Positions 1 to 33,722 of a stretch of 47,804 nt of DNA are shown here, one piece after another. The first letter of the stretch is position 1. Each line of letters begins with the position of its first letter. The position numbers and the translations under genes were made by a program. The notes under the pieces were generated by a model, which did no database searches, had not been told where the DNA came from, and saw only the letters and a list, made by a program, of their open reading frames with translations. This DNA comes from Chthonomonadales bacterium (GTDB lineage: Bacteria; Armatimonadota; Chthonomonadetes; Chthonomonadales; Chthonomonadaceae), in contig JBBQPO010000013.1 in the NCBI GenBank assembly GCA_038217285.1, positions 1-47,804 of the forward strand, read 5' to 3'.

Positions 1-944
1 ACGACTACATTTGCTACGGACGCCGCTTGCTCCTCCGTCTGCTGGCTTGCGCTCTTGCCCAGAAGTTCGGCATCGGCATTGTCAGCACGTAGGAGTTGCT
101 GCGAGTCCGTGGCTTGCGGCTTGTCAGGGGAGACGGTGCGCAGCAAGGTGTCGGGATGCTCGGGCGCTCGGCTTGCGCGCAGCATCTCTTCGGGGCCGTA
201 CCGTAATCGCTCGCGGATCTGCTCCACAGACTGAAGCGCTGCCTGTCGAAGCGCGGGATCGTCGGCCTTCCTGGCAAATCGTTTCAGCACAAGGATTGAA
301 GAAGAATCGCCAACCACGGCGAGGGCGCCAATCGCGGCAGGGCGGAGCTTGCGACGGAGAGTTTCGAAGGTCGGGGTACTTTTTCCACACACACCACCAG
401 TGCCCACGATCCAATAATCCCAGCCAGGCGGCATTACAAGCTCGTGGAGGCGTTTGCGTTGGAATTCTGTCAGAATCACTTCATCCTCCGCTCGGATCGA
501 TTGCAGCAGGGCACCAAGCAACGCAGCTACCGACTCAATCTCATCATCGTAGAGTACCACCGCCGCAGCTAGCGTCGCTTCGAGGAGGGGACCGATAGCG
601 GAGGGAGGAGCGATTTGCCGGGCATCACTGTGCCCAGGTACGAAGATGCCACGCAGTTCACCGAAGGCCTCGCGAAGACGCTTCTGTTCAGCTAGCATCC
701 ATATACACACTGCAAGGAAAGGGAGTAACAGCGGTAACAGAAACACAAGCAAAATACCGTCGATCGGTCGCTTTAGGAAGGCGTTCACCAACATGAGGAC
801 GAATGGTGAAGCGACGGACACGGCTATCCACGGTGGGCCGGTCCGCCTCATCCATCGAGCGGGAAGACGCAACGCATAGGCGCGCTCAGCCACACGGTTA
901 ATCGCATCGAGTTGCGGCGTAGACGCCATGTTCTGATCATTCAT
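1..944 (-). CDS. Membrane protein (2 TM + HEAT-like helical region + triple LLR tail), candidate Rhs immunity protein; 3' end runs off the window
   Basis: Translated by hand; absent from the ORF track because it has no stop in the window. ATG at 944 preceded by TAAGGAG; open frame to position 1 (MNDQNMASTPQL...WIAVSVASPFVLMLVNAFL...GILLVFLLPLLLPFLAVCIWML...AAIGALAVVGDSSSI...EEMLRAS...DTLLRTV...QQLLRAD). Directly downstream of the Rhs gene on the same strand. Confidence 0.85.
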   Translation of the reverse strand, partial: MNDQNMASTPQLDAINRVAERAYALRLPARWMRRTGPPWIAVSVASPFVLMLVNAFLKRPIDGILLVFLLPLLLPFLAVCIWMLAEQKRLREAFGELRGIFVPGHSDARQIAPPSAIGPLLEATLAAAVVLYDDEIESVAALLGALLQSIRAEDEVILTEFQRKRLHELVMPPGWDYWIVGTGGVCGKSTPTFETLRRKLRPAAIGALAVVGDSSSILVLKRFARKADDPALRQAALQSVEQIRERLRYGPEEMLRASRAPEHPDTLLRTVSPDKPQATDSQQLLRADNADAELLGKSASQQTEEQAASVANVV

Positions 945-967
945 ATTTCGGCACTCCTTAGGATTTC

Positions 968-1000
968 GTGCCGTCGACCAGATTCCCCAGTCGACGGCAC
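968..1000. repeat. Perfect 11-bp inverted repeat (stem-loop) between the Rhs gene and the downstream gene
   Basis: GTGCCGTCGAC (968-978) / GTCGACGGCAC (990-1000), 11-nt loop; no U-tract on either strand. Confidence 0.75.
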
Positions 1001-1018
1001 AACCTTCAGGCGATCATG

Positions 1019-4000
1019 CTACGGAACGAGCCTGTTGCACAATCCGCTAGCGAAGCCGCCCGCGATACTACCGATCCACCCCCCCCAGGGCCCAGGGATC
1101 GCACCACCGAGACACCCCGTGAGGCCACCCGTTGCAATCTGGCAGACGATATTCTCCGGGCTGGGCGGTGGGCAGGCCGCTGCGGAGCATGCTAAACCGA
1201 TGACCGCAGCGCCTATTCCACAGAGTATGCCCACGAAGCATCCCACCCCAGGGCCAGCCAACGCGACGATGGAACCGATCAGCCCACAGAGTGCCCCCGT
1301 GAAGCACCCCATGATAATGGAACAGAAACCGGCGAGGTTAAGTCCACCACCGCCGACCACATCGCCAACCAAGGCACCGACCATTCCAGCGAGACAGCCT
1401 AATCCCGCAGTTCCACCGGCGCTCCCGCCGCCACCTTTGCCGGGGCCGGTGTTGCCGCCAGCGCCGCCGTTACCCAGACCACCGTCATGAGGCCCTCCGT
1501 GCCTTTGAGGCCAATAGCCAGTCGGATCGGACATATCCAGCGGATCGTTGCTGACATAGCCATAGACGTTGACACCACCATCCGTATCCATAGGATCGCG
1601 GTTCAAGAAGCGTCCGGACGTGCTATCGTAGAACCGATGACCGAGCAGTTGCAGTCCCGTCTCCCAATCGGTGAAGTAACCCGTCGTGCCCCCGTAGCCG
1701 CTGTAGGGATCGCTCGTCGCCGTGGGATCGGAACTGTTGACCAGTCTTCCTCCGAAGCTGTCGAAGGCATACGAAGCCACCACGCTGCCCGAGGAGGCGT
1801 CTACCTGCTGGCTCACATTGCCCAAGGAGTCGGATGTGTAAAGCAGCGTTCGTGTCGCCGTGGTGCGCGCCAACACTCCTGACGGGCCAAACGTGGTCAC
1901 CGCCGTTTTTGTTCCTGAAGCGTTCACCTCCAAAACCGGACGATCCACATCGTAGATGAAGTAGGTCGTGCCGGATGCTGTTGTCTTGGAGGCGCGCAGT
2001 CCGTCGCCGCGATACCCAGATGTCATCGCCGTGCCGAAAGCGTTCAGGCGGTTCTCTGCGTCGAAGGTTGTCGTCGTTCCCTTGTAGGTTGTGGGATTGC
2101 CGGAGCCATCGTAGACATTCGCGCTGTTCTGGTTGTCGGCATTGAACGACTGCGCCGCGCCTCGGAAGGTCGTGGGGTTTTCGGCGGCATCATAGGCGCA
2201 GTTCAGAGTGTAACCGCTGCCGACCGTGCTGCTCTCGTGGGTCATCTCCGAGCGCGTATCCTGGGTGTAGTTGGTCGTGCCGCCGAGTGCGGACGCGGCG
2301 GGAAGGGAGCTGACGATCTGCGCAACGCTGCCGCCGGGAGTATATCCGTTTACCGTGTAGCTCGACAGAGTGCTTCCGCCACTTGTCGTTGTGTTCGCCA
2401 GACTGGTGAGGATTCCCCGCGCGTTGCGGGTGTAGTTGACGGTGACCCGGGTTGCGTCCATCTGCTGGCTTAGCCAGTCGTTGTTGAGGTAACTCCAGTT
2501 CCACGTCTGGCCGGAAGGGTTTTGCAGTGAAGTCAGCCGGGTTGCCGCATCGTAGCTATACCCAAAACTCGTGCCGTCCGGCAGGCGCATGGACTGGCAA
2601 CTTTCATCCGGATTGTAGGCATAGGTCAGGGTCTGAGCGGGCAAGCCGGTATAGGTCGTCGTGGCCGTGAGGAGCAGATCGTTGAAGTCGTAGCTCCACG
2701 CCTGCGAACCGCTGCCGTCAGATCTGGACTGTCGGCGTCCATAAGCATCGTAGGCGATATGCACGTTGATACCCGGAGTGGCGGGATACTGCAGGTCCGT
2801 CAGCTTATTCTCCGGATCGTCGTAGACGAAGTTGGTCACCACGCCGCGCCCATCGACGCGCTGAAGGGTATGCCCGAGGTTGTCAAAGGAGGTAAACGAA
2901 ACGATGTCATAGCCCGTGTTGACGTTGGCATTTGGGTAGGAGATCTTCCCAAGGTAGCCGCCCGTCGTATAGGCATACGTTGCCGCATGCGCATTTCCAT
3001 CGGCCATCGAGGTCATTCGGTAGAGAGCGTCGTACGTGGCGGTGAAGGGCTGGGTCGTTCCGGAGCGGGACAGAGTCTCGCCCTCGGGACCGAGGATGGT
3101 GAGAACCTGGAACACCAGGGTGCCCGCCTCGTTGGTCTGCGTCTCTTGCGATTGCGGGCCACCGACGTACTGGTAAGTGTAGCCCACCGTCGCGTGCCCT
3201 GCGCCGGTCATTCCAGTGGTAGGAAAGGTGATCGTGGTCATCTGGTCGGCCAGATTATGCGCGATGTCCATCTCGTTGCCCAATGCGTCGCTCTCGGCGC
3301 TCTTGTTTCCTCGGGCATCGAAGCGGAAGTGCGAGACGTGCCCCAACGGGTCGGTACGCGTCAGGGGCTGACGCAGAGCCGCCGCCTGGTTGTAATTATA
3401 CGCCGGGTCGCTGGTGTAGTTGAAGGTCGTGGTTTCTGTCGTCACGGCGTTGTTGCCGGGGCCGCTCTCCTGGGTCAGGTTGCCGAGGGCGTCGTAGAAG
3501 AAGTTGGCCGCGATCGTTGCCCCCGAGAGATCGCCCGGTTTGGCGCAGGTGATACTTTGCAGCAGGCCGGTGGGTTCGTAGTAGGTGAGCGTGACCGGTA
3601 TCTTCGCGCCGACTTGAATGCTCGTCACCTCGCCCAGCGCGAAGTTGGTGTAACTGATCGTGTTGGTCGTTACGGTGCCGCGCGCCGAAGTAGACGTCAG
3701 ACAGTTTCCGAACTGGTCCCAGGTCGCAGATGTCGTATTCCCGTTGGCGTTGGTCACCGACGAGGGACGATAGATGTTGTTGGGATCGGCAAAGGTTTTG
3801 GTGTACTGAACCACGCCGCTGCCATTGGTGGTACTGATGCCGTTCATGCCGGAATCGAAGCCAGCAGTGTAACTGTAGACCGTAGCGCCCTGGGGGTTTT
3901 TGACCGTGACGAGAGTGTGCGTCAGGTCGGTGGCGCTGTAGTTGCGGCTGTTGCCGTTGGCGTCCACTAACGACGTCACGTAGCAGGTGCCGTTGGTGGC

Positions 4001-6937
4001 GTAGTTGATCGTCGCCGTCGCATTACCCGCCCCGGTCGGCGAGGGAACGGTGATGGTGTGCAGGAACGGAACCTGCTCGGTGCCTTCGCCGTTATTTACC
4101 GCCTGATACCCATAGGCATAACGGTCGGGAGGGTTCAGTGCTCCGGTCGCCACGACCTGACTCACATGATCGAGTTCCTGCATCGACGTAGGATTGGGAG
4201 CGCCCACATTCACATTGGCATACGTGCCCACGTGATACGTGACGCTCCGACCGTAGCGGTCGTTGATCGCCGTCAGGTTGCCCGTGCCATCGCTTGCGCG
4301 GGTGAAGGTGAGCAGATTCTGCCCGCTCCTGTCCGTAATCGCCGAGAGCATGGGAAAATTGCCGCTGCCGGGGTTGCCGTACCAGAAGTTTATGGCGTTG
4401 CCGGTGCGGTCGATGATCTGGCCCAGAGAGTAGAGGATCGCGCTCGTTTGCCCGATGTTCGAACTGCCTCCCACGGCTTTACTCACCGTCGTCGTCACCA
4501 TCTGGGTGCGGTCTGCCATGGTGAGGACATAGTAGCCGCAGGTGTAACCGGGCGCATACTTCCACCTCACCAGCATGGGAAAGCCAGCGGGAAGCGTGCA
4601 GACGACCGAGGGATTCGCCGCCGTGGGAACCGAGGGCGCATTTATGGGAACTTGGGCTCCATTGGGTTCTATGAGGGTGCGGGTGCCAGGTTTGGGCAGA
4701 TAGCTGACGGCGTAGACTTGGAAGGGAGAGGACTGCGGATAGTAGTACTGGTAGCGCACCTCGTAGGTGCCCACAGGCGCAAGAGAAGGAGCCGTCACCT
4801 TAGCCGCCGAGGGAGAACTGAGGGTGACGCTCCAGTTATTGGGAGCGGTCGAGGTGGCAATCGTGGTTCCGTTTTGAACGATGTCCCAGGTCAGTCCGGC
4901 GGCTGGCACATCGGAGCCGGTGAAAGAGACGTCGCCCTGGCCTCCCTGTGGAACCTGCGGTGTGCTGGTGGCGGCATAGACGTCGAAGAAGCCGGACTGG
5001 AAATAGTTGTTGCTGCCGACCTGGGCGCGCATTTCATAACTGCTGCAAAGGGGGGCATTGGCGGGAATGCTCACGGTAAACTGATAGTAGCCGCTGACCG
5101 CCCATCCATTGGGGGAGGCGGAGGAGGCGATGGTGGTTCCGTTCTGGACGATGTCCCAGGTGAGCCCGCTGGCCGGGGCGTCCGTGCCAGTGGAGGGCAA
5201 CATATTGTTGGTGCTGCCTTGCAAAAAGTGCATATCGGCGCGGACGGTAGTATCATAGACGGCGTAGTTGTAGCTGTGCGACCAGCCGACCCCCATGTCG
5301 TCGGAGTTGTATTTCTCCCCTGAGGCACGCAGACTGTTGTAGATGCGACTCCAACTGACCGAGGGGCCGACCGGATTGTAGACTGTCAGATCGGTGCCCG
5401 GTCGGTACTCCTCTTCGCCTGTCGCCAGATTGACCGGATCGCCTGCAGAGGCTCCGCTAAAAGCGTCCGGAGTTACCGTGGTGGGAGGGGCTGTCGTGGG
5501 GCCACCACCATCAGTAGGTGGGGTCTTCTCGCAGGGACATGGATCGCCATCGGGTTTGTTACCGCACAGCAACAGCCGCGTTGGGGCGAGGTAGAGCAGT
5601 AGGTGGCCTGCCAGCCGAGCCGCCAGCCGAGCGGAGACGGCGGGGTTCTGCACGGACAGCGAAGCGAGCACGGTTCGAGGCGTATGGGTCGCCAGGGCGA
5701 GTTCAGCCGTTTTTGAAGCGGGGTGTAGCGCGAACTGCAGCGCCTGCGCCTCGGGGCTGTCGGGCAGGCAGACGGCCAGGTAAGGCCCAGCCTCCATGGC
5801 TTTCCACTGCTTCCAGGTCACCTTGCGCTCACCGCCAGGCCAGGCGCCGCAGTCCGAACAGAGGTAGGTCACTCCCTGCTTGTCCGCATGCGTGAGGGCG
5901 ATAAAGTGGTCGTGCTCCACGAAAGCCACCAGAGGCGAGTTGAGGGCTTGCAACGCCGTGGGATCGGCTTGGCAGGCGACGGTGGTAAGTTTGAGTTTGT
6001 TGGCGGCCTGGATAACGTCTGCGAGGCTGCTGCCTTCTCCCGTCACCCGGCAGAGAGGACGCACGGTCTTTTTGTCATAGGGCAGATGCAGTCCGCGCAG
6101 GCAGGCGGCGAGAGCTTCCACGCCGCAGAGAGGGTCCAAACGATTGGGTTCGGTGATGCCCATTTTGGAGCGCTCGGTGTGGTAGCCGGCGCAGGCAGAG
6201 GCATGGCGCTGGAAGAGAGCGGTCTCGCGACGTTCGATGCCGGGCAGGGGGGTGCGGGAGGTGAGCAGGGTATGCAGAACTTCCGCCGCCTGGGCGTAGC
6301 GTCCTGAGTAGAAGAGTCCAAACCCGATGTCGCGCCGGGCTGCAGCAACAACCGCCTCTGTGGACTGGGTGTCCGAAGGACGCTGTGCCTGATGACGCGT
6401 TCTGCGGTTCGTCTTGACGCTTGCCTGGGCGGCTAGATCGATGGCTGATTTGAAATGGGTGATAGCGTCGAGCGGCTCTTCATCTCTGGCCAGCCGGACT
6501 TCTCCGAGCCACAGATGCAGACGGGCCATTCGGAGGGAAGAGAGTTTCGCATTGGCATCCGTGTGCAGTTGCTTCTGCCATTGCCTCACCTGACCCGAGA
6601 GAAGACTGCCCTTGAGATGCCCAATGTCGTCGAGGAGCGAAAGACCAACGGCACCACGTCTGTTTTTGCCGACCAGCGCGATTTTATGCGCCTCGCCCGG
6701 TGAGAGGGGGCGAAGGTTTTCGCGCAAAGATTTCGGCGGCGAGATGCGTTTAAGATTCGGATGAAGAAGAGGCAGGGATGAGACAATCGGTTTAGCCGAT
6801 ACGGGGTGAGTCGTGGCCGTTTGGTGAGCCAGTACTTTTGCAGGCGTGGAAAGCACGAACGTTCCGGTAAAACTCAGGCTACAGAGTGCAGCAATGTGTC
6901 TCATCCATCTTGGGGTAGAGACGCGGTAAGCAGACAT
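1019..6937 (-). CDS. Rhs/YD-repeat polymorphic toxin-like protein: signal peptide, TPR-like helices, C39 peptidase-like domain, DUF6531-like start, YD repeats, Rhs core, Gly/Cys-rich C-terminal domain
   Basis: Start moved to ATG 6937 (AAGGAGG SD 6 nt upstream), about 1972 aa. N-terminal hydrophobic segment ending VLA; LCGVEALAACL and DHFIAL (C39-like Cys/His); GDPVNLATG; many YD-type repeats; core motifs RFYDSTSGRFLNRDP and YGYVSNDPLDMSDPTG. Confidence 0.93.
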   Translation of the reverse strand: MSAYRVSTPRWMRHIAALCSLSFTGTFVLSTPAKVLAHQTATTHPVSAKPIVSSLPLLHPNLKRISPPKSLRENLRPLSPGEAHKIALVGKNRRGAVGLSLLDDIGHLKGSLLSGQVRQWQKQLHTDANAKLSSLRMARLHLWLGEVRLARDEEPLDAITHFKSAIDLAAQASVKTNRRTRHQAQRPSDTQSTEAVVAAARRDIGFGLFYSGRYAQAAEVLHTLLTSRTPLPGIERRETALFQRHASACAGYHTERSKMGITEPNRLDPLCGVEALAACLRGLHLPYDKKTVRPLCRVTGEGSSLADVIQAANKLKLTTVACQADPTALQALNSPLVAFVEHDHFIALTHADKQGVTYLCSDCGAWPGGERKVTWKQWKAMEAGPYLAVCLPDSPEAQALQFALHPASKTAELALATHTPRTVLASLSVQNPAVSARLAARLAGHLLLYLAPTRLLLCGNKPDGDPCPCEKTPPTDGGGPTTAPPTTVTPDAFSGASAGDPVNLATGEEEYRPGTDLTVYNPVGPSVSWSRIYNSLRASGEKYNSDDMGVGWSHSYNYAVYDTTVRADMHFLQGSTNNMLPSTGTDAPASGLTWDIVQNGTTIASSASPNGWAVSGYYQFTVSIPANAPLCSSYEMRAQVGSNNYFQSGFFDVYAATSTPQVPQGGQGDVSFTGSDVPAAGLTWDIVQNGTTIATSTAPNNWSVTLSSPSAAKVTAPSLAPVGTYEVRYQYYYPQSSPFQVYAVSYLPKPGTRTLIEPNGAQVPINAPSVPTAANPSVVCTLPAGFPMLVRWKYAPGYTCGYYVLTMADRTQMVTTTVSKAVGGSSNIGQTSAILYSLGQIIDRTGNAINFWYGNPGSGNFPMLSAITDRSGQNLLTFTRASDGTGNLTAINDRYGRSVTYHVGTYANVNVGAPNPTSMQELDHVSQVVATGALNPPDRYAYGYQAVNNGEGTEQVPFLHTITVPSPTGAGNATATINYATNGTCYVTSLVDANGNSRNYSATDLTHTLVTVKNPQGATVYSYTAGFDSGMNGISTTNGSGVVQYTKTFADPNNIYRPSSVTNANGNTTSATWDQFGNCLTSTSARGTVTTNTISYTNFALGEVTSIQVGAKIPVTLTYYEPTGLLQSITCAKPGDLSGATIAANFFYDALGNLTQESGPGNNAVTTETTTFNYTSDPAYNYNQAAALRQPLTRTDPLGHVSHFRFDARGNKSAESDALGNEMDIAHNLADQMTTITFPTTGMTGAGHATVGYTYQYVGGPQSQETQTNEAGTLVFQVLTILGPEGETLSRSGTTQPFTATYDALYRMTSMADGNAHAATYAYTTGGYLGKISYPNANVNTGYDIVSFTSFDNLGHTLQRVDGRGVVTNFVYDDPENKLTDLQYPATPGINVHIAYDAYGRRQSRSDGSGSQAWSYDFNDLLLTATTTYTGLPAQTLTYAYNPDESCQSMRLPDGTSFGYSYDAATRLTSLQNPSGQTWNWSYLNNDWLSQQMDATRVTVNYTRNARGILTSLANTTTSGGSTLSSYTVNGYTPGGSVAQIVSSLPAASALGGTTNYTQDTRSEMTHESSTVGSGYTLNCAYDAAENPTTFRGAAQSFNADNQNSANVYDGSGNPTTYKGTTTTFDAENRLNAFGTAMTSGYRGDGLRASKTTASGTTYFIYDVDRPVLEVNASGTKTAVTTFGPSGVLARTTATRTLLYTSDSLGNVSQQVDASSGSVVASYAFDSFGGRLVNSSDPTATSDPYSGYGGTTGYFTDWETGLQLLGHRFYDSTSGRFLNRDPMDTDGGVNVYGYVSNDPLDMSDPTGYWPQRHGGPHDGGLGNGGAGGNTGPGKGGGGSAGGTAGLGCLAGMVGALVGDVVGGGGLNLAGFCSIIMGCFTGALCGLIGSIVALAGPGVGCFVGILCGIGAAVIGLACSAAACPPPSPENIVCQIATGGLTGCLGGAIPGPWGGWIGSIAGGFASGLCNRLVP
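4700..5230 (-). repeat. Intragenic tandem duplication (~90 aa unit) in the Rhs protein
   Basis: TGTDAPASGLTWDIVQNGTTIASSASPNGW and TGSDVPAAGLTWDIVQNGTTIATSTAPNNW; matching DNA (atgtcccagg at 4881-4890 and 5151-5160) offset by 270 nt. Boundaries approximate. Confidence 0.85.
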
Positions 6938-7088
6938 GAGAAACCTCCTTGATATCCTATGCGAAACAGCAAACATAAGATAAACAGCGCCCGTCACTTA
7001 TCGTGTATTCAGATTTTCAAACCCTCGCGATTATTTTGTCAGCACACTTTCAAACCAGTGACAAGTGCCGTACGTGTGTTACGAAAAT

Positions 7089-7278: not shown

Positions 7279-9591
7279 TTAGCGACGGGGACGGAAGCGG
7301 GCTTTGGGAGTCTCGTCCTCTTCCGGCTCGTCCGGCGCGGCCTGGGGAGCGGGAGCATCAGGGCGAGGCCCACGATCCCGGTCGCCGCCGCCGAAGCGGG
7401 GAGGCCCACCACGATCCCGACCGCCGCGATCTCCGCCACGGTCACCACCGCCACTGAAGCGAGGTGGACCGCCGCCACGACCGTCGTCGGGTCGCTTGGA
7501 CATGGAGGCGTCGAACGGCTGGTCGAGGTTGATCGCCGAGAGGTTGATACGACCCTGCTGATCTACTTCGATGACGCGCACCTTGATCTCATCGCCGACC
7601 TTGACCGCCTCTTCGGGGCGGCGCACCGGCGGGTTCTTGAGGTGGCTCACGTGAACCATTCCCTCTTTACCGGGCATGATCTCCACGAACGCGCCCATGC
7701 CGATGAGGCGGGTCACCTTGCCGGTGAATAGCGAGCCCACTTCGACATCGCCCACCATCCCGAGGATGATATCGGCGGCACGACGGCCTGCGGACTGATC
7801 GACTGCAGCGATGAAGATCTTGCCGTCCTGCTGAATGTCGATCTGCGCGCCGGTATCGGCGGTGATCTGCTTGATCGTCTTGCCGCCGGGGCCGATGATC
7901 AGGCCGATGCGCTCCGGATTGATCTCGATGCTGAAGATCGACGGCGCGAACTTGCTGAGCGTCTCACGCGGTTCGGCCAGCGCTTCCGCGATCTTGCCGA
8001 GGATATGGAGGCGGCCCACACGGGCCTGCTCCAGCGCCCGCACCATGACTTCGCGGGGCAGTCCCTGGATCTTGGTGTCCATCTGGATCGCCGTGATACC
8101 TTCGGTCGTTCCGGCCACCTTGAAGTCCATGTCTCCAGAGAAGTCTTCCATGCCCTGAATGTCGGTGAGGACGGCGTACTTATCGCCGATCGTCATCAGG
8201 CCCATGGCGATTCCGGCAACGGGCGCTTTGATCTTGACGCCCGCGTCCATCAGCGCCAGCGTGGAGCCGCAGACGGAGGCCATCGAGGTCGAGCCGTTGC
8301 TCTCCAGGACTTCGCTATGGAGCAGCATGGCGTAAGGGAAGTCCTCCAGCGGGGGCAGAACCGGGACCAGCGCACGCTGCGCCAGTGCGCCATGACCGAT
8401 TTCGCGCCGACCGGGGCCGCGCATCGGGCGCACTTCGCCGACCGAATAGGGCGGGAAGTTGTAGAAGTGCATATACTGCTGTCGCTGATCCATCTCCAGG
8501 TTGTCCACGACCTGCGCTTCGCTCATCGCGCCGAGGGTCAGGCAGGTGAGCACCTGGGTCTGTCCGCGGGTGAAGAGGCCGGTACCGTGTACACGGGGCA
8601 GCAGGCCGACTTCGCAGGTGATCTGGCGAATCTCGTCCAGTTTGCGGCCGTCGGGCCGAATGCTGTCCTCGATGATCAGGCTGCGGATCGCCTTCTTGAC
8701 GGCCTTGTCGGCGGCTTCGGGAATCTCGTGGGCGTTCTCGGGGAACTCCGGTTTGAAGCGAGCGACGATCTCACGCTTGAGGTCGTCGATCGCGCTCTCG
8801 CGGGCCGCTTTGTCGGGGTTCTGAATGGAAGCGCGGATCTCGGCGCCCATTTTGTCCTGGATCGCCTTCAGGATGTCGGCGTTCGGCAGGAACCTCGATA
8901 TCTCGCCTTTCGGCTTGCCGGCCAGCGCCTTCAACTCTTCCTGCAGTTCGCACTGTCCCTTGATGATCTCGTGGGCGGCGTCCATGGCGGCGAGCATGTC
9001 GGTTTCGGTCACGAAATCGCAGCCCGCTTCGACCATGATGATTGCCTTATGCGTACCGGCCACGACCAGATCAAGGTCGGACTCGCCGATCTGCTCCTGG
9101 GAGGGATTGATGATCAGTTCGCCATTGACGCGTCCGACGCGGACGGCTCCCACGGGGCCTTCCCACGGAATATCGGAGACACAGAGCGCGGCAGAGGCGG
9201 CGACGATGGCGAAGGTGTCGGAAAGGTTATCGAGGTCGAGCGAGAGGGGCATCGACATGACCTGCACGTCGTTGCGCATCCCCTCGGGGAAGAGTGGGCG
9301 CAGGGGCCGGTCGATGAGACGGGAGGTGAGCACGGCCTTTTCTGAGGGTCGGCCTCCGCGCTTCATAAAGCCGCCGGGAATCTTACCGACCGCGTACTTT
9401 CTCTCTTCGTAGTCGCAGGTCAGTGGAAAGAAATCGATGCCGGTGCGGGGTTCTCGGCTCATGGTAGCGGTCGCCATCACGACGGTATCGCCTACGGTAA
9501 GCCAGACGGCTCCTCCGGCCTGTTTCGCGATTTTGCCTGTTTCCAGACGCAAGGTCTTTCCAGCCAGTTCGCGTTCAACGGATTGTGACAA
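7279..9591 (-). CDS. pnp: Polyribonucleotide nucleotidyltransferase (PNPase)
   Basis: DFFPLTCDYEE, GKIPGGF, RREIGHGALA, SNGSTSMASVCG, GDMDFKVAGT; KH and S1 domains; TTG start with AGGAG SD; downstream of rpsO. Confidence 0.98.
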   Translation of the reverse strand: MSQSVERELAGKTLRLETGKIAKQAGGAVWLTVGDTVVMATATMSREPRTGIDFFPLTCDYEERKYAVGKIPGGFMKRGGRPSEKAVLTSRLIDRPLRPLFPEGMRNDVQVMSMPLSLDLDNLSDTFAIVAASAALCVSDIPWEGPVGAVRVGRVNGELIINPSQEQIGESDLDLVVAGTHKAIIMVEAGCDFVTETDMLAAMDAAHEIIKGQCELQEELKALAGKPKGEISRFLPNADILKAIQDKMGAEIRASIQNPDKAARESAIDDLKREIVARFKPEFPENAHEIPEAADKAVKKAIRSLIIEDSIRPDGRKLDEIRQITCEVGLLPRVHGTGLFTRGQTQVLTCLTLGAMSEAQVVDNLEMDQRQQYMHFYNFPPYSVGEVRPMRGPGRREIGHGALAQRALVPVLPPLEDFPYAMLLHSEVLESNGSTSMASVCGSTLALMDAGVKIKAPVAGIAMGLMTIGDKYAVLTDIQGMEDFSGDMDFKVAGTTEGITAIQMDTKIQGLPREVMVRALEQARVGRLHILGKIAEALAEPRETLSKFAPSIFSIEINPERIGLIIGPGGKTIKQITADTGAQIDIQQDGKIFIAAVDQSAGRRAADIILGMVGDVEVGSLFTGKVTRLIGMGAFVEIMPGKEGMVHVSHLKNPPVRRPEEAVKVGDEIKVRVIEVDQQGRINLSAINLDQPFDASMSKRPDDGRGGGPPRFSGGGDRGGDRGGRDRGGPPRFGGGDRDRGPRPDAPAPQAAPDEPEEDETPKARFRPRR

Positions 9592-32747: not shown

Positions 32748-33722
32748 ATGAGAACCCGAACTGCCAGACCGATCACAGACAGTGAGAAGAGCCATCACCT
32801 GGTGCGACGCCTCGGCAGTTGGAACGCAAAAGAACGCCGCAGCGCGCAACAGGAGTTTACGCGAATGGCGACCGAAGATCCCGCCCTGTTCCACGCGGAC
32901 CTTGCGGACATCATCCGCGCTATCACGGGCGATCGGAAAGGCGCCCGAATCGGCATCGCCCTCGCGGTAGCGTTCTCTTATCCGGCCTGTGTGATCCTTC
33001 TGGCATTGGGACAAAGTCGTATTCTAGTCACCCCTCTGCTGTGGGCCGTGGCCGTCCTTATACCGGTCCTTCTCACAGGCTTTGGCATGTTTAAGGCAAT
33101 CGACTGTCCACACAGGAAACATCTGGCGGAGTGCATTACGGACATCGATGATCTGAACACTCTCCCGGCTTTGATCGAGTTGTTGGAGTTCACCGACTCT
33201 AACGTTCGGCGCGCGATCATACCGCCCATGACGCGCCTGCTTCTCCGTCTGCGCGATTCCGACGCCTATCTGCTCGGCTTCCTCCACCGGTCGGTGCTGG
33301 CCCGCACACTCAGTACGCCTCGCACACGCAAACTCCCCGCCTCATTTTTTCTCGCCGTGCTGCAGGCGTTCGAGAAGATCGGTGACAGCCAGGCGCTGCC
33401 AGCCGTCACATGGCTGGCGCACGGCAAAGGCGTGGCGCGCGACTGTCCACCCCTTCAGGCTGCCGCCCAGGCGTGCGTGACGCACCTGCAGGGACAGCTT
33501 CGCCGCCGCCAGGCCCCTTACCTGCTGCTCCGGCCTTCGTCGCTCGCGGAGGCCTCCAACTCCCTCTTACGACCTATCGCCACCTCTCCGGATGCCGCGC
33601 CGCACGAGCTGCTCCGCGCGAACAACACCCCGTATGGATCGGAAACAACCTCGTCTCGCGACCCTGTTGCAGCGGTGTCTGAACTCGTTCCCATCCGTCT
33701 TCGCCAGCACGAAATTTCGTAG
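32748..33722 (+). CDS. Membrane protein (2 TM + HEAT-like + triple LLR tail), paralog of the 1-944 gene
   Basis: Two hydrophobic segments, LPALIELL, AVLQAFEKIGDSQALP, tail YLLLRPS...SLLRPI...ELLRAN; GGAG upstream. Confidence 0.8.
   Translation: MRTRTARPITDSEKSHHLVRRLGSWNAKERRSAQQEFTRMATEDPALFHADLADIIRAITGDRKGARIGIALAVAFSYPACVILLALGQSRILVTPLLWAVAVLIPVLLTGFGMFKAIDCPHRKHLAECITDIDDLNTLPALIELLEFTDSNVRRAIIPPMTRLLLRLRDSDAYLLGFLHRSVLARTLSTPRTRKLPASFFLAVLQAFEKIGDSQALPAVTWLAHGKGVARDCPPLQAAAQACVTHLQGQLRRRQAPYLLLRPSSLAEASNSLLRPIATSPDAAPHELLRANNTPYGSETTSSRDPVAAVSELVPIRLRQHEIS

Follow-up and report, generated by a model that had tools for sequence, protein, structure and literature searches.

What might the C-terminal tip of an Rhs protein do that is crowded with glycine and cysteine and carries hardly any charge? 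The question is raised by the beginning of a 47,804 nt-long stretch of Chthonomonadales DNA (contig JBBQPO010000013.1, assembly GCA_038217285.1; this whole stretch is referred to as the window), where the gene of a C39–Rhs polymorphic toxin (1019..6997, minus strand) ends in such a tip. An original prediction, made from the sequence, had described it as a disulfide-stabilised, membrane-active toxin that resembles class II bacteriocins and is possibly cut by a C39 peptidase at the glycine pairs of its linker. The best explanation that we arrived at, to which we give somewhat better than even confidence, is a disulfide-stapled, membrane-acting Rhs toxin tip that is accompanied by membrane immunity proteins. 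The parts of this explanation differ in strength: it is very likely that the domain is a toxin tip and likely that the membrane is the site of its action, while the odds that killing proceeds by an ion leak or a pore are about even. The target is probably the membranes of competing bacteria.

The tip domain and its cysteine scaffold

The tip comprises the 164 amino acids (aa) that follow DPTGY and is encoded by 1513..1022 on the minus strand, at the end of the open reading frame (ORF) 1019..6997. These residues include 50 Gly, 2 His, only 6 K/R/D/E and 11 Cys at CT positions 40, 64, 70, 76, 92, 98, 109, 114, 124, 134 and 159 (CT numbering counts within the 164 aa, domain numbering within the 130-aa domain introduced below). 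Four GC(L/F)xG units and GPWGGWIGSIAGG are present as previously quoted, and the earlier account of the composition, with its 11 Cys, few charges and lack of a nuclease or deaminase motif, holds; Pfam and NCBIfam, including the nuclease and deaminase families, gave zero matches for the 164 aa at E-values up to 1. The tip starts with a Gly-rich linker of about 34-39 aa (1412..1513, minus strand), which is confined to the subfamily of the window's tip, and continues with a hydrophobic, Cys/Gly-rich domain of 130 aa with all 11 Cys and five predicted helices (1022..1411, minus strand). The mass is 12.0 kDa for this domain (grand average of hydropathy, 1.24) and 14.9 kDa for the whole tip, at a net charge of -1.

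Compared with 20,000 shuffles, the domain is enriched in GxxxG (15 seen, 8.0 expected, p about 0.001) and in GxxxGxxxG (8 seen, 1.9 expected, p about 0.002), and its four GC[LF]xG units (0.1 expected) were not reached in any shuffle. Four hydrophobic segments were called on the Kyte-Doolittle (KD) scale, and the tip shows the GxxxG(xxxG) surplus on hydrophobic helices by which Gly-zipper ionophores are recognised. Among the 18,328 stop-to-stop ORFs of at least 125 aa in the window's own genome (G000, 95% complete), a Cys/Gly-rich, charge-poor stretch of 125 aa is unique to the tip ORF. The AlphaFold model of the domain has five helices (3-19, 26-52, 54-77, 85-104 and 108-128; pLDDT 78.5, pTM 0.55). 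A structure search with this model yielded no Foldseek match at E-values up to 0.001 and, with VIA, a best Z of 8.2 to unrelated helical proteins; no clear match to a solved fold, be it saposin-like, a colicin pore domain or another, emerged in this way, which does not imply a novel fold. The ESM Atlas provided leads only (best scores 0.77 and 0.82), no PDB sequence was matched by the profile of the tip family, and the alignments of this family gave scattered sub-threshold matches in Pfam and NCBIfam. The comparison with bacteriocin and Gly-zipper families that had been suggested as a check left the window's tip without a match; for the Pfam Gly-zipper families, one of the 34 family members matched PF13488 at E=0.026.

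The tip has relatives, which we profiled within Armatimonadota and sought by a single phmmer search of 50% representatives. The latter returned 7 relatives among 1.84 billion representatives, and a single-sequence search found the tip in 3 of 41 related genomes, its own included. A first alignment, A1, matched in 13 of 401 genomes of the phylum, and the 34-row alignment A2 in 17 of 401, belonging to four families, with one match weak and most of the matches being, by design of the alignment, themselves A2 rows. Protein searches by word had low sensitivity: one returned only the tip protein itself, another 3 and a further one none, despite known members in the length range of the last. Two candidates were rejected as members: the Gly-zipper tip of locus L046, which lacks the Cys (hhalign probability 1%), and a Cys-free, Gly-rich tip in genome G010, which matched A1 and was lost with A2. 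The family members identified sit behind an Rhs core, either in full C39–Rhs loci (the window, L143 and the frameshifted L137) or in cassette arrays; arrays of 2-5 divergent copies occur in seven genomes (G250, G021, G353, G331, G400, G237 and G049).

At a mean column identity of 21%, the family has kept a scaffold of Cys. Seven Cys columns of A2 are 85-100% conserved (33/34, 33/34, 34/34, 34/34, 33/33, 29/34 and 30/32) and two further Cys are each divided between two adjacent columns (26/30; 33 in all), giving about nine conserved Cys. Two additional pairs are optional and behave in an all-or-none manner: for domain positions 42/64, 16 rows have both Cys, 18 have neither and none has one alone, and for positions 38/67 the corresponding numbers are 4, 29 and zero. 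On the tree, the two Cys of each pair change jointly, at 4 and 2 places for the respective pairs, sister rows included, which points to more than one inherited event, the rows concerned being kin rather than independent. The position sums of these pairs and of the invariant pair 30/75 are 105-106, fitting the antiparallel helices 26-52 and 54-77, and this register of helices 2 and 3 together with the all-or-none pairs suggests that the Cys form disulfides. Metal ligation or redox switching, another function that the Cys could have, would suit their odd number and the CxxxxC/CxxxxxC spacings, but we consider it extremely unlikely, since the jointly gained and lost pairs are 22-29 residues apart on facing helices, the family has no conserved His or acidic ligands and the export signals of the carrier imply an oxidising compartment.

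The tip hence represents an apparently undescribed family without a Pfam or NCBIfam match and with a conserved Cys scaffold. In the literature, covered by titles and abstract openings and mostly outside subscription journals, we found no description of the tip family or its chassis; the supplementary lists of PMC3482391 might include the tip domain.

Neighbouring genes and the probable site of action

The relatives of the C39–Rhs protein in the fetched loci carry 24 other tips, which by sequence reading rather than by profile scan are Hint-linked, HExxH-containing, putatively nuclease-like or of other types. One chassis with many unrelated tips and with orphan cassettes indicates a polymorphic toxin system, and a conserved chassis with varied C-termini is given as the signature of such toxins in PMC3482391. 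YD/RHS repeats with a core, an autoprotease motif, unrelated C-termini and orphan cassettes, which are among the hallmarks of Rhs polymorphic toxins, were found. As a side observation, at least 7 Cys occur in 11 of the 24 non-family tips, and short Rhs-core cassette arrays at L090, L091, L092, L135 and L144 carry other tips that are also very Cys-rich, some having HExxH motifs and secreted-looking neighbours.

Downstream of the toxin gene lies a candidate immunity gene (1..944, minus strand) that runs off the contig end and encodes three hydrophobic segments, a HEAT-like repeat (HEAT_2, E=8e-4, below cut-off) and LLRx tails, an arrangement that we abbreviate as TM–HEAT–LLRx (TM, transmembrane). 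The next gene encodes at least two hydrophobic helices in 30 of 33 modules of the tip family, compared with 1 of 20 for the other tips, and the single other tip with a membrane-type neighbour is itself a hydrophobic Gly zipper. These counts cover the 33 of 35 family modules and 20 of 24 other tips that have a downstream ORF; the initial counts were 31/33 and 2/23, before three rows were dropped (a weak 5-Cys match, a broken module's second fragment and a non-Rhs ORF) and two truncated members moved into the family. Close tips tend to have homologous neighbours, in 9 of 13 pairs versus 6 of 483 for distant tips, and this tracking of tip closeness indicates that tip and neighbour co-vary. A profile of the TM–HEAT–LLRx neighbour matched seven neighbours within the family, among them the window's, and none beside the other tips; at L137 such a gene is located about 670 bases downstream. 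In the f11 genomes, small membrane proteins of 94-219 aa sit next to the family tips, none of these proteins being matched by the HEAT profile.

The membrane neighbours and the covariation would be explained equally well by a membrane-acting toxin without a pore of its own, i.e., a helical ligand made rigid by disulfides that jams a particular membrane protein or a lipid, such as the undecaprenyl carrier, and for which the neighbour serves as decoy or sequestering partner. A surface that diverges to 21% identity around a fixed Cys scaffold, at neutral or acidic charge, is what would be expected of a diversifying binding face. The surplus of GxxxG and GxxxGxxxG and the four KD hydrophobic segments, however, resemble Gly-zipper ionophores, and we regard the jamming ligand as unlikely. 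Cognate covariation also suits ligand–receptor pairs, which raises the alternative of a tip that is not toxic and serves as an identity or signalling peptide (for kin recognition or as a contact signal), with the TM–HEAT neighbour as its receptor and the paralogues of the latter as a repertoire. The cytoplasmic HEAT domain and the repeated LLRx tails of the neighbour would be superfluous for a simple membrane plug, and there are 27-48 paralogues in G000, compared with one tip of this family. Yet enzyme-like tips whose neighbours are soluble are found on this chassis too, tips occur in the orphan cassette arrays that are typical of toxin–immunity loci, and the f11 neighbours lack a HEAT match altogether, so that a signalling role appears quite improbable.

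Several points weigh against a disulfide-stapled membrane toxin with dedicated immunity as well. The count of 11 Cys is odd, and the counts in the family range from 8 to 16 in both parities. The tip model is of middling confidence, S–S distances are not readable from it, and a disulfide-rich bundle could be a compact soluble domain in which the hydrophobic residues are merely buried. Neutral or acidic charge, found in 27 of 34 family members, leaves no electrostatic route onto anionic membranes. The TM calls for the neighbours come from the Kyte-Doolittle heuristic, and the genomes and array members are related, so that the counts are not independent. Finally, the TM–HEAT–LLRx neighbour has its 27-48 paralogues (depending on the iteration), and its three closest homologues elsewhere, fetched as 3.5-kb loci, are not beside an Rhs tip; the neighbour therefore need not be a dedicated immunity gene. 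Co-folding of the tip with the downstream protein gave scores of 0.07 and 0.03, compared with a mark of 0.32, and was counted neither way.

One paralogue of the candidate immunity gene is located within the window (32748..33722, plus strand), and most proteins of the HEAT-like family in G000 have one to three C-terminal LLRx motifs, many of them also TM helices. A strong stem-loop (964..1003, minus strand; z -4.7), followed by AAGGAG and devoid of a U-tract, separates the toxin stop from the next gene; it is a single copy in G000 and was not equalled in stability by any of 200 shuffles. Through this hairpin, transcript amounts may differ between the toxin gene and the one downstream.

Probable export and predicted release of the tip

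The carrier protein has 1992 aa when read from a GTG codon, and a 1972-aa form in a protein collection fits a start at Met21 (6937). Along the ORF, a signal-like N-terminus, a weak TPR region, a C39-like domain, DUF6531, YD repeats, the Rhs core and the tip follow each other; Peptidase_C39, DUF6531, RHS_repeat and Rhs_assc_core were assigned, and PF05593, TIGR03696 and TIGR01643 (YD/RHS repeats and Rhs-associated core) scored over their cut-offs. The N-terminus (6827..6937, minus strand) consists of a basic stretch, a hydrophobic stretch and VLA-H, resembling a signal peptide for putative Sec export. In our heuristic, which is not a trained predictor, the window's protein just misses the threshold (1.70 versus 1.8), its own paralogue passes, and a basic-plus-hydrophobic N-terminus is present in 22 of the 31 homologues whose N-terminus is available, with a twin-arginine motif in 4; this count excludes 10 homologues that are short or cut. 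Genome G000 has no match to TssC/VipB (PF05943) or VgrG-like (PF05954) proteins of a type VI secretion system (T6SS), and the Pfam scan of the C39–Rhs protein revealed no PAAR family. A VKOR gene was found in all five genomes tested, G000 included, and no DsbB match in the five genomes. From these sequence features, export probably proceeds by Sec/Tat rather than by T6SS.

The weak TPR-like helices (6218..6349, minus strand; TPR_12, E=0.21, below cut-off) are followed by a C39-like papain domain (5798..6127, minus strand; PF03412, 35.7 bits, cut-off 22), whose Cys and His align with those of peptidase domains of peptidase-containing ATP-binding cassette (ABC) transporters (PCAT; E 0.34). The triad Cys291, His364 and Asp382 is intact in all 37 aligned homologues covering it. 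The C39 domain is probably a processing domain and would most likely act on the N-terminal part; a Leu-x-x/Gly-His-Val stretch behind it was rejected as a cis substrate because its conservation is too loose. Within 5798-6187 (minus strand), CSDCG is invariant around the catalytic Asp, with both Cys present in 37/37, and the domain lacks a conserved Gln six residues ahead of the catalytic Cys; redox control of the putative protease is possible.

The Rhs shell begins with DUF6531 (5252..5443, minus strand); ahead of the tip comes the Rhs-associated core (1517..1684, minus strand), in which DPMD-X19-DPTG (Asp1801 and Asp1824) corresponds to the aspartyl autoprotease consensus DPXG-X18/19-DPXG described in PMC10684867, with both Asp present and the first Gly replaced by Asp. 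In solved Rhs proteins, the core protease cuts the tip, which stays within the shell (PMC10684867). Here, the autoprotease is likewise predicted to release the tip, which accounts for its release without C39. This bears on the remaining alternative, a class II bacteriocin-like peptide that the C39 domain of the same protein would free at a linker GG. Such cleavage is not far-fetched for the window's subfamily, because the C39 domain of the CdiA-like toxin StbD is reported to act in cis, cleaving its own linker behind a GG (bioRxiv 10.64898/2026.05.07.723447). Moreover, the C39 triad is intact, there are 8 GG steps before the first Cys of the window's tip, its three closest relatives (P0004, P0009 and P0011) share the Gly-rich linker, and one of the 34 family members matches Bacteriocin_IIc at E=0.018. 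Most observations speak against it, and we judge this alternative very unlikely. Among the 25 members with a defined junction, 20 lack any GG ahead of the first Cys and only the window's tip has a linker of more than 30 aa, and the linkers of L137 and L143, the other C39–Rhs loci followed to the end, are short, with 2 GG steps each. A double-glycine leader requires a hydrophobic residue at each of the positions -4, -7 and -12 (PMC10885120), whereas none of the 10 GG/GA/GS sites in the window's linker has a hydrophobic residue at -4. The window's C39 has no match in any of the five tip-bearing f11 genomes, which are 98-99% complete, and in the protein itself it lies about 1,450 residues from the tip, on the N-terminal side of the shell, which in solved Rhs proteins encloses the tip. 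Concerning a C39-ABC transporter near the tip, the upstream gene reads as a polynucleotide phosphorylase and the contig ends 1 kb downstream. Cleavage by C39 at the linker glycines is not supported, and of the resemblance to class II bacteriocins only the composition is left, as kinship is at odds with the mostly neutral or acidic charge and with the profiles: PF10439 and the NCBIfam bacteriocin models do not match the tip. Mature class II double-glycine peptides are cationic and smaller than about 10 kDa, and an identity with them was rejected by leader, size (12.0 kDa for the domain), charge and profile.

The other half of the original prediction, a disulfide-stabilised membrane-active tip, gained support from the co-varying Cys, the hydrophobic five-helix model, the membrane neighbours, the signal-like N-termini and VKOR, all of them read from sequence or model. 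We propose that the protein would leave the cytoplasm by Sec, or by Tat in some relatives, and not by T6SS, which would allow its Cys to be oxidised by the VKOR pathway. The Rhs aspartyl protease would cut after DPTG, with the shell shielding the hydrophobic tip, and disulfides would staple helices 2 and 3 into a hairpin with the rungs CT76–98 (suggested by covariation) and CT64–109 (suggested by register). Arriving from outside at the inner membrane of a competitor, the tip would pack via its GxxxG faces and depolarise the cell, and the adjacent TM–HEAT protein would block it in the producer's membrane.

The C39 domain of the carrier matched in 23 of 301 genomes of the phylum; in a collection of named genomes, 14 of 18 C39 loci belong to Armatimonadota, mostly Chthonomonadaceae or related ranks, and one is a weak match in Aminicenantales. 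Rhs toxins with twin-arginine N-termini were seen at L046, L047/L021, L051 and L033; the intact genes encode about 1,700-1,900 aa, and the motif hints that the Rhs shell is exported in folded form. The proteins of L037/L131 and L039 are longer (3,100-3,400 aa), their C39–Rhs module being preceded by a long extension whose N-terminus is signal-like; L039 also has a long GD-repeat linker. At L002 (end of contig C24 of G021), a C39 region is followed at once or nearly so, in another frame, by an Rhs core and tip, and the YD shell is missing, as in an internally deleted copy. Upstream of the window's toxin gene, the polynucleotide phosphorylase gene (7279..9591, minus strand; assigned by sequence reading) makes a housekeeping gene its neighbour. 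Contig ends of G000 (C169, C334 and C179) carry fragments of another C39–Rhs paralogue (the second one, 66-91% identical), whose tip is not assembled with them, and four other Rhs genes or pieces with unrelated tips lie on C356, C24 and C58.

Relation to known toxins and biological meaning

The closest precedent is Tse5, a pore-forming Rhs effector of P. aeruginosa whose Tse5-CT is encapsulated by the Rhs shell (PMC10684867). Both combine an Rhs shell, a DPxG-X19-DPxG autoprotease and a hydrophobic C-terminal tip, which in Tse5 goes to a membrane and has a cognate immunity protein, as would be the case here with the candidate immunity gene. Tse5 is delivered by T6SS and PAAR, whereas at our locus there is no T6SS match and instead a signal-like N-terminus, TPR-like and C39 domains and a Cys scaffold; Tse5-CT is set apart by description and not by direct alignment, the family profile having matched no PDB sequence. 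EsxX is described as a Gly-zipper depolarising toxin; polytopic membrane proteins, which also occur as orphans, neutralise it in its extracellular form (PMC12744356). The tip shares with this system (ExiCD) a GxxxG-rich, here putatively toxic end and membrane-embedded immunity proteins, here candidates, with orphan copies, and the membrane-type neighbours of 30 of 33 family modules, together with the orphans, agree with that pattern. GxxxG-rich helices are also reported at the toxic end of CdiA ionophore group 1 (PMC11630599). All these differ from the family in their carriers, which are LXG with the type VII secretion system for EsxX and CdiA with the type V secretion system for the ionophores; there was no family-profile match, and the tip family is characterised by its 8-16 Cys. 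The same holds in comparison with Caulobacter CdzCD. The latter is said to be a surface-associated two-protein bacteriocin with Gly zippers.

The halocin C8 peptide is Cys-rich and hydrophobic and, like the tip, makes up a small antimicrobial domain at the C-terminus of a precursor that is exported by Sec/Tat or borne on Rhs; its domain (TIGR04449) is reported on Rhs proteins of Nitrolancea, too (bioRxiv 10.64898/2026.07.27.741052). The mature peptide, however, has 76 aa versus about 130 aa, and it shares its polypeptide with the immunity part. Kinship was rejected, as TIGR04449 matches none of the 34 members; it was over the cut-off neither in five genomes nor at the tip loci, and in 1 of 14 for the control. 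With class II bacteriocins (PF10439), the tip has Gly-rich hydrophobic helices and a C39-type domain in the same gene in common, but it has no leader helix pattern, is larger, mostly non-cationic and would be released by the Rhs core, and its C39 domain is part of the toxin instead of being joined to an ABC transporter as in PCAT systems. Tox-WTIP, a non-enzymatic hydrophobic tip, was described on Sec-type Rhs toxins by Zhang et al. 2012 (PMC3482391), who also list HEAT repeats among immunity proteins. WTIP is proteobacterial, with two helices and RxxR/WxSIP motifs, unlike the tip described here, and the HEAT immunity in that list is paired with REase-7 rather than a membrane toxin.

Rhs tips that act on membranes and are countered by immunity proteins in the membrane are already known, and the locus appears to be a variant on this existing theme, in which the scaffold, the chassis and the lineage seem to be new: a tip family on a co-varying disulfide scaffold, a signal peptide–TPR–C39–Rhs chassis and polymorphic toxins in Armatimonadota. 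About 30 natural pairs of tips and neighbours provide material on disulfide-locked helical bundles at membranes and on the evolution of specificity, and an Rhs protein exported by Sec/Tat poses the question of how a target is accessed without T6SS. The large and unexplained TM–HEAT gene family would gain a testable function. A wider proposal, which we consider doubtful, combines these elements into an oxidatively folded Rhs weapon independent of T6SS, in which a Sec/Tat-exported TPR–C39–Rhs capsule delivers stapled helical membrane toxins that diversify on a common scaffold, with the scattered TM–HEAT–LLRx genes, 27-48 copies facing one tip of this family in G000, as a genome-wide library of orphan immunity; if true, it would give a function to the expansion of these genes.

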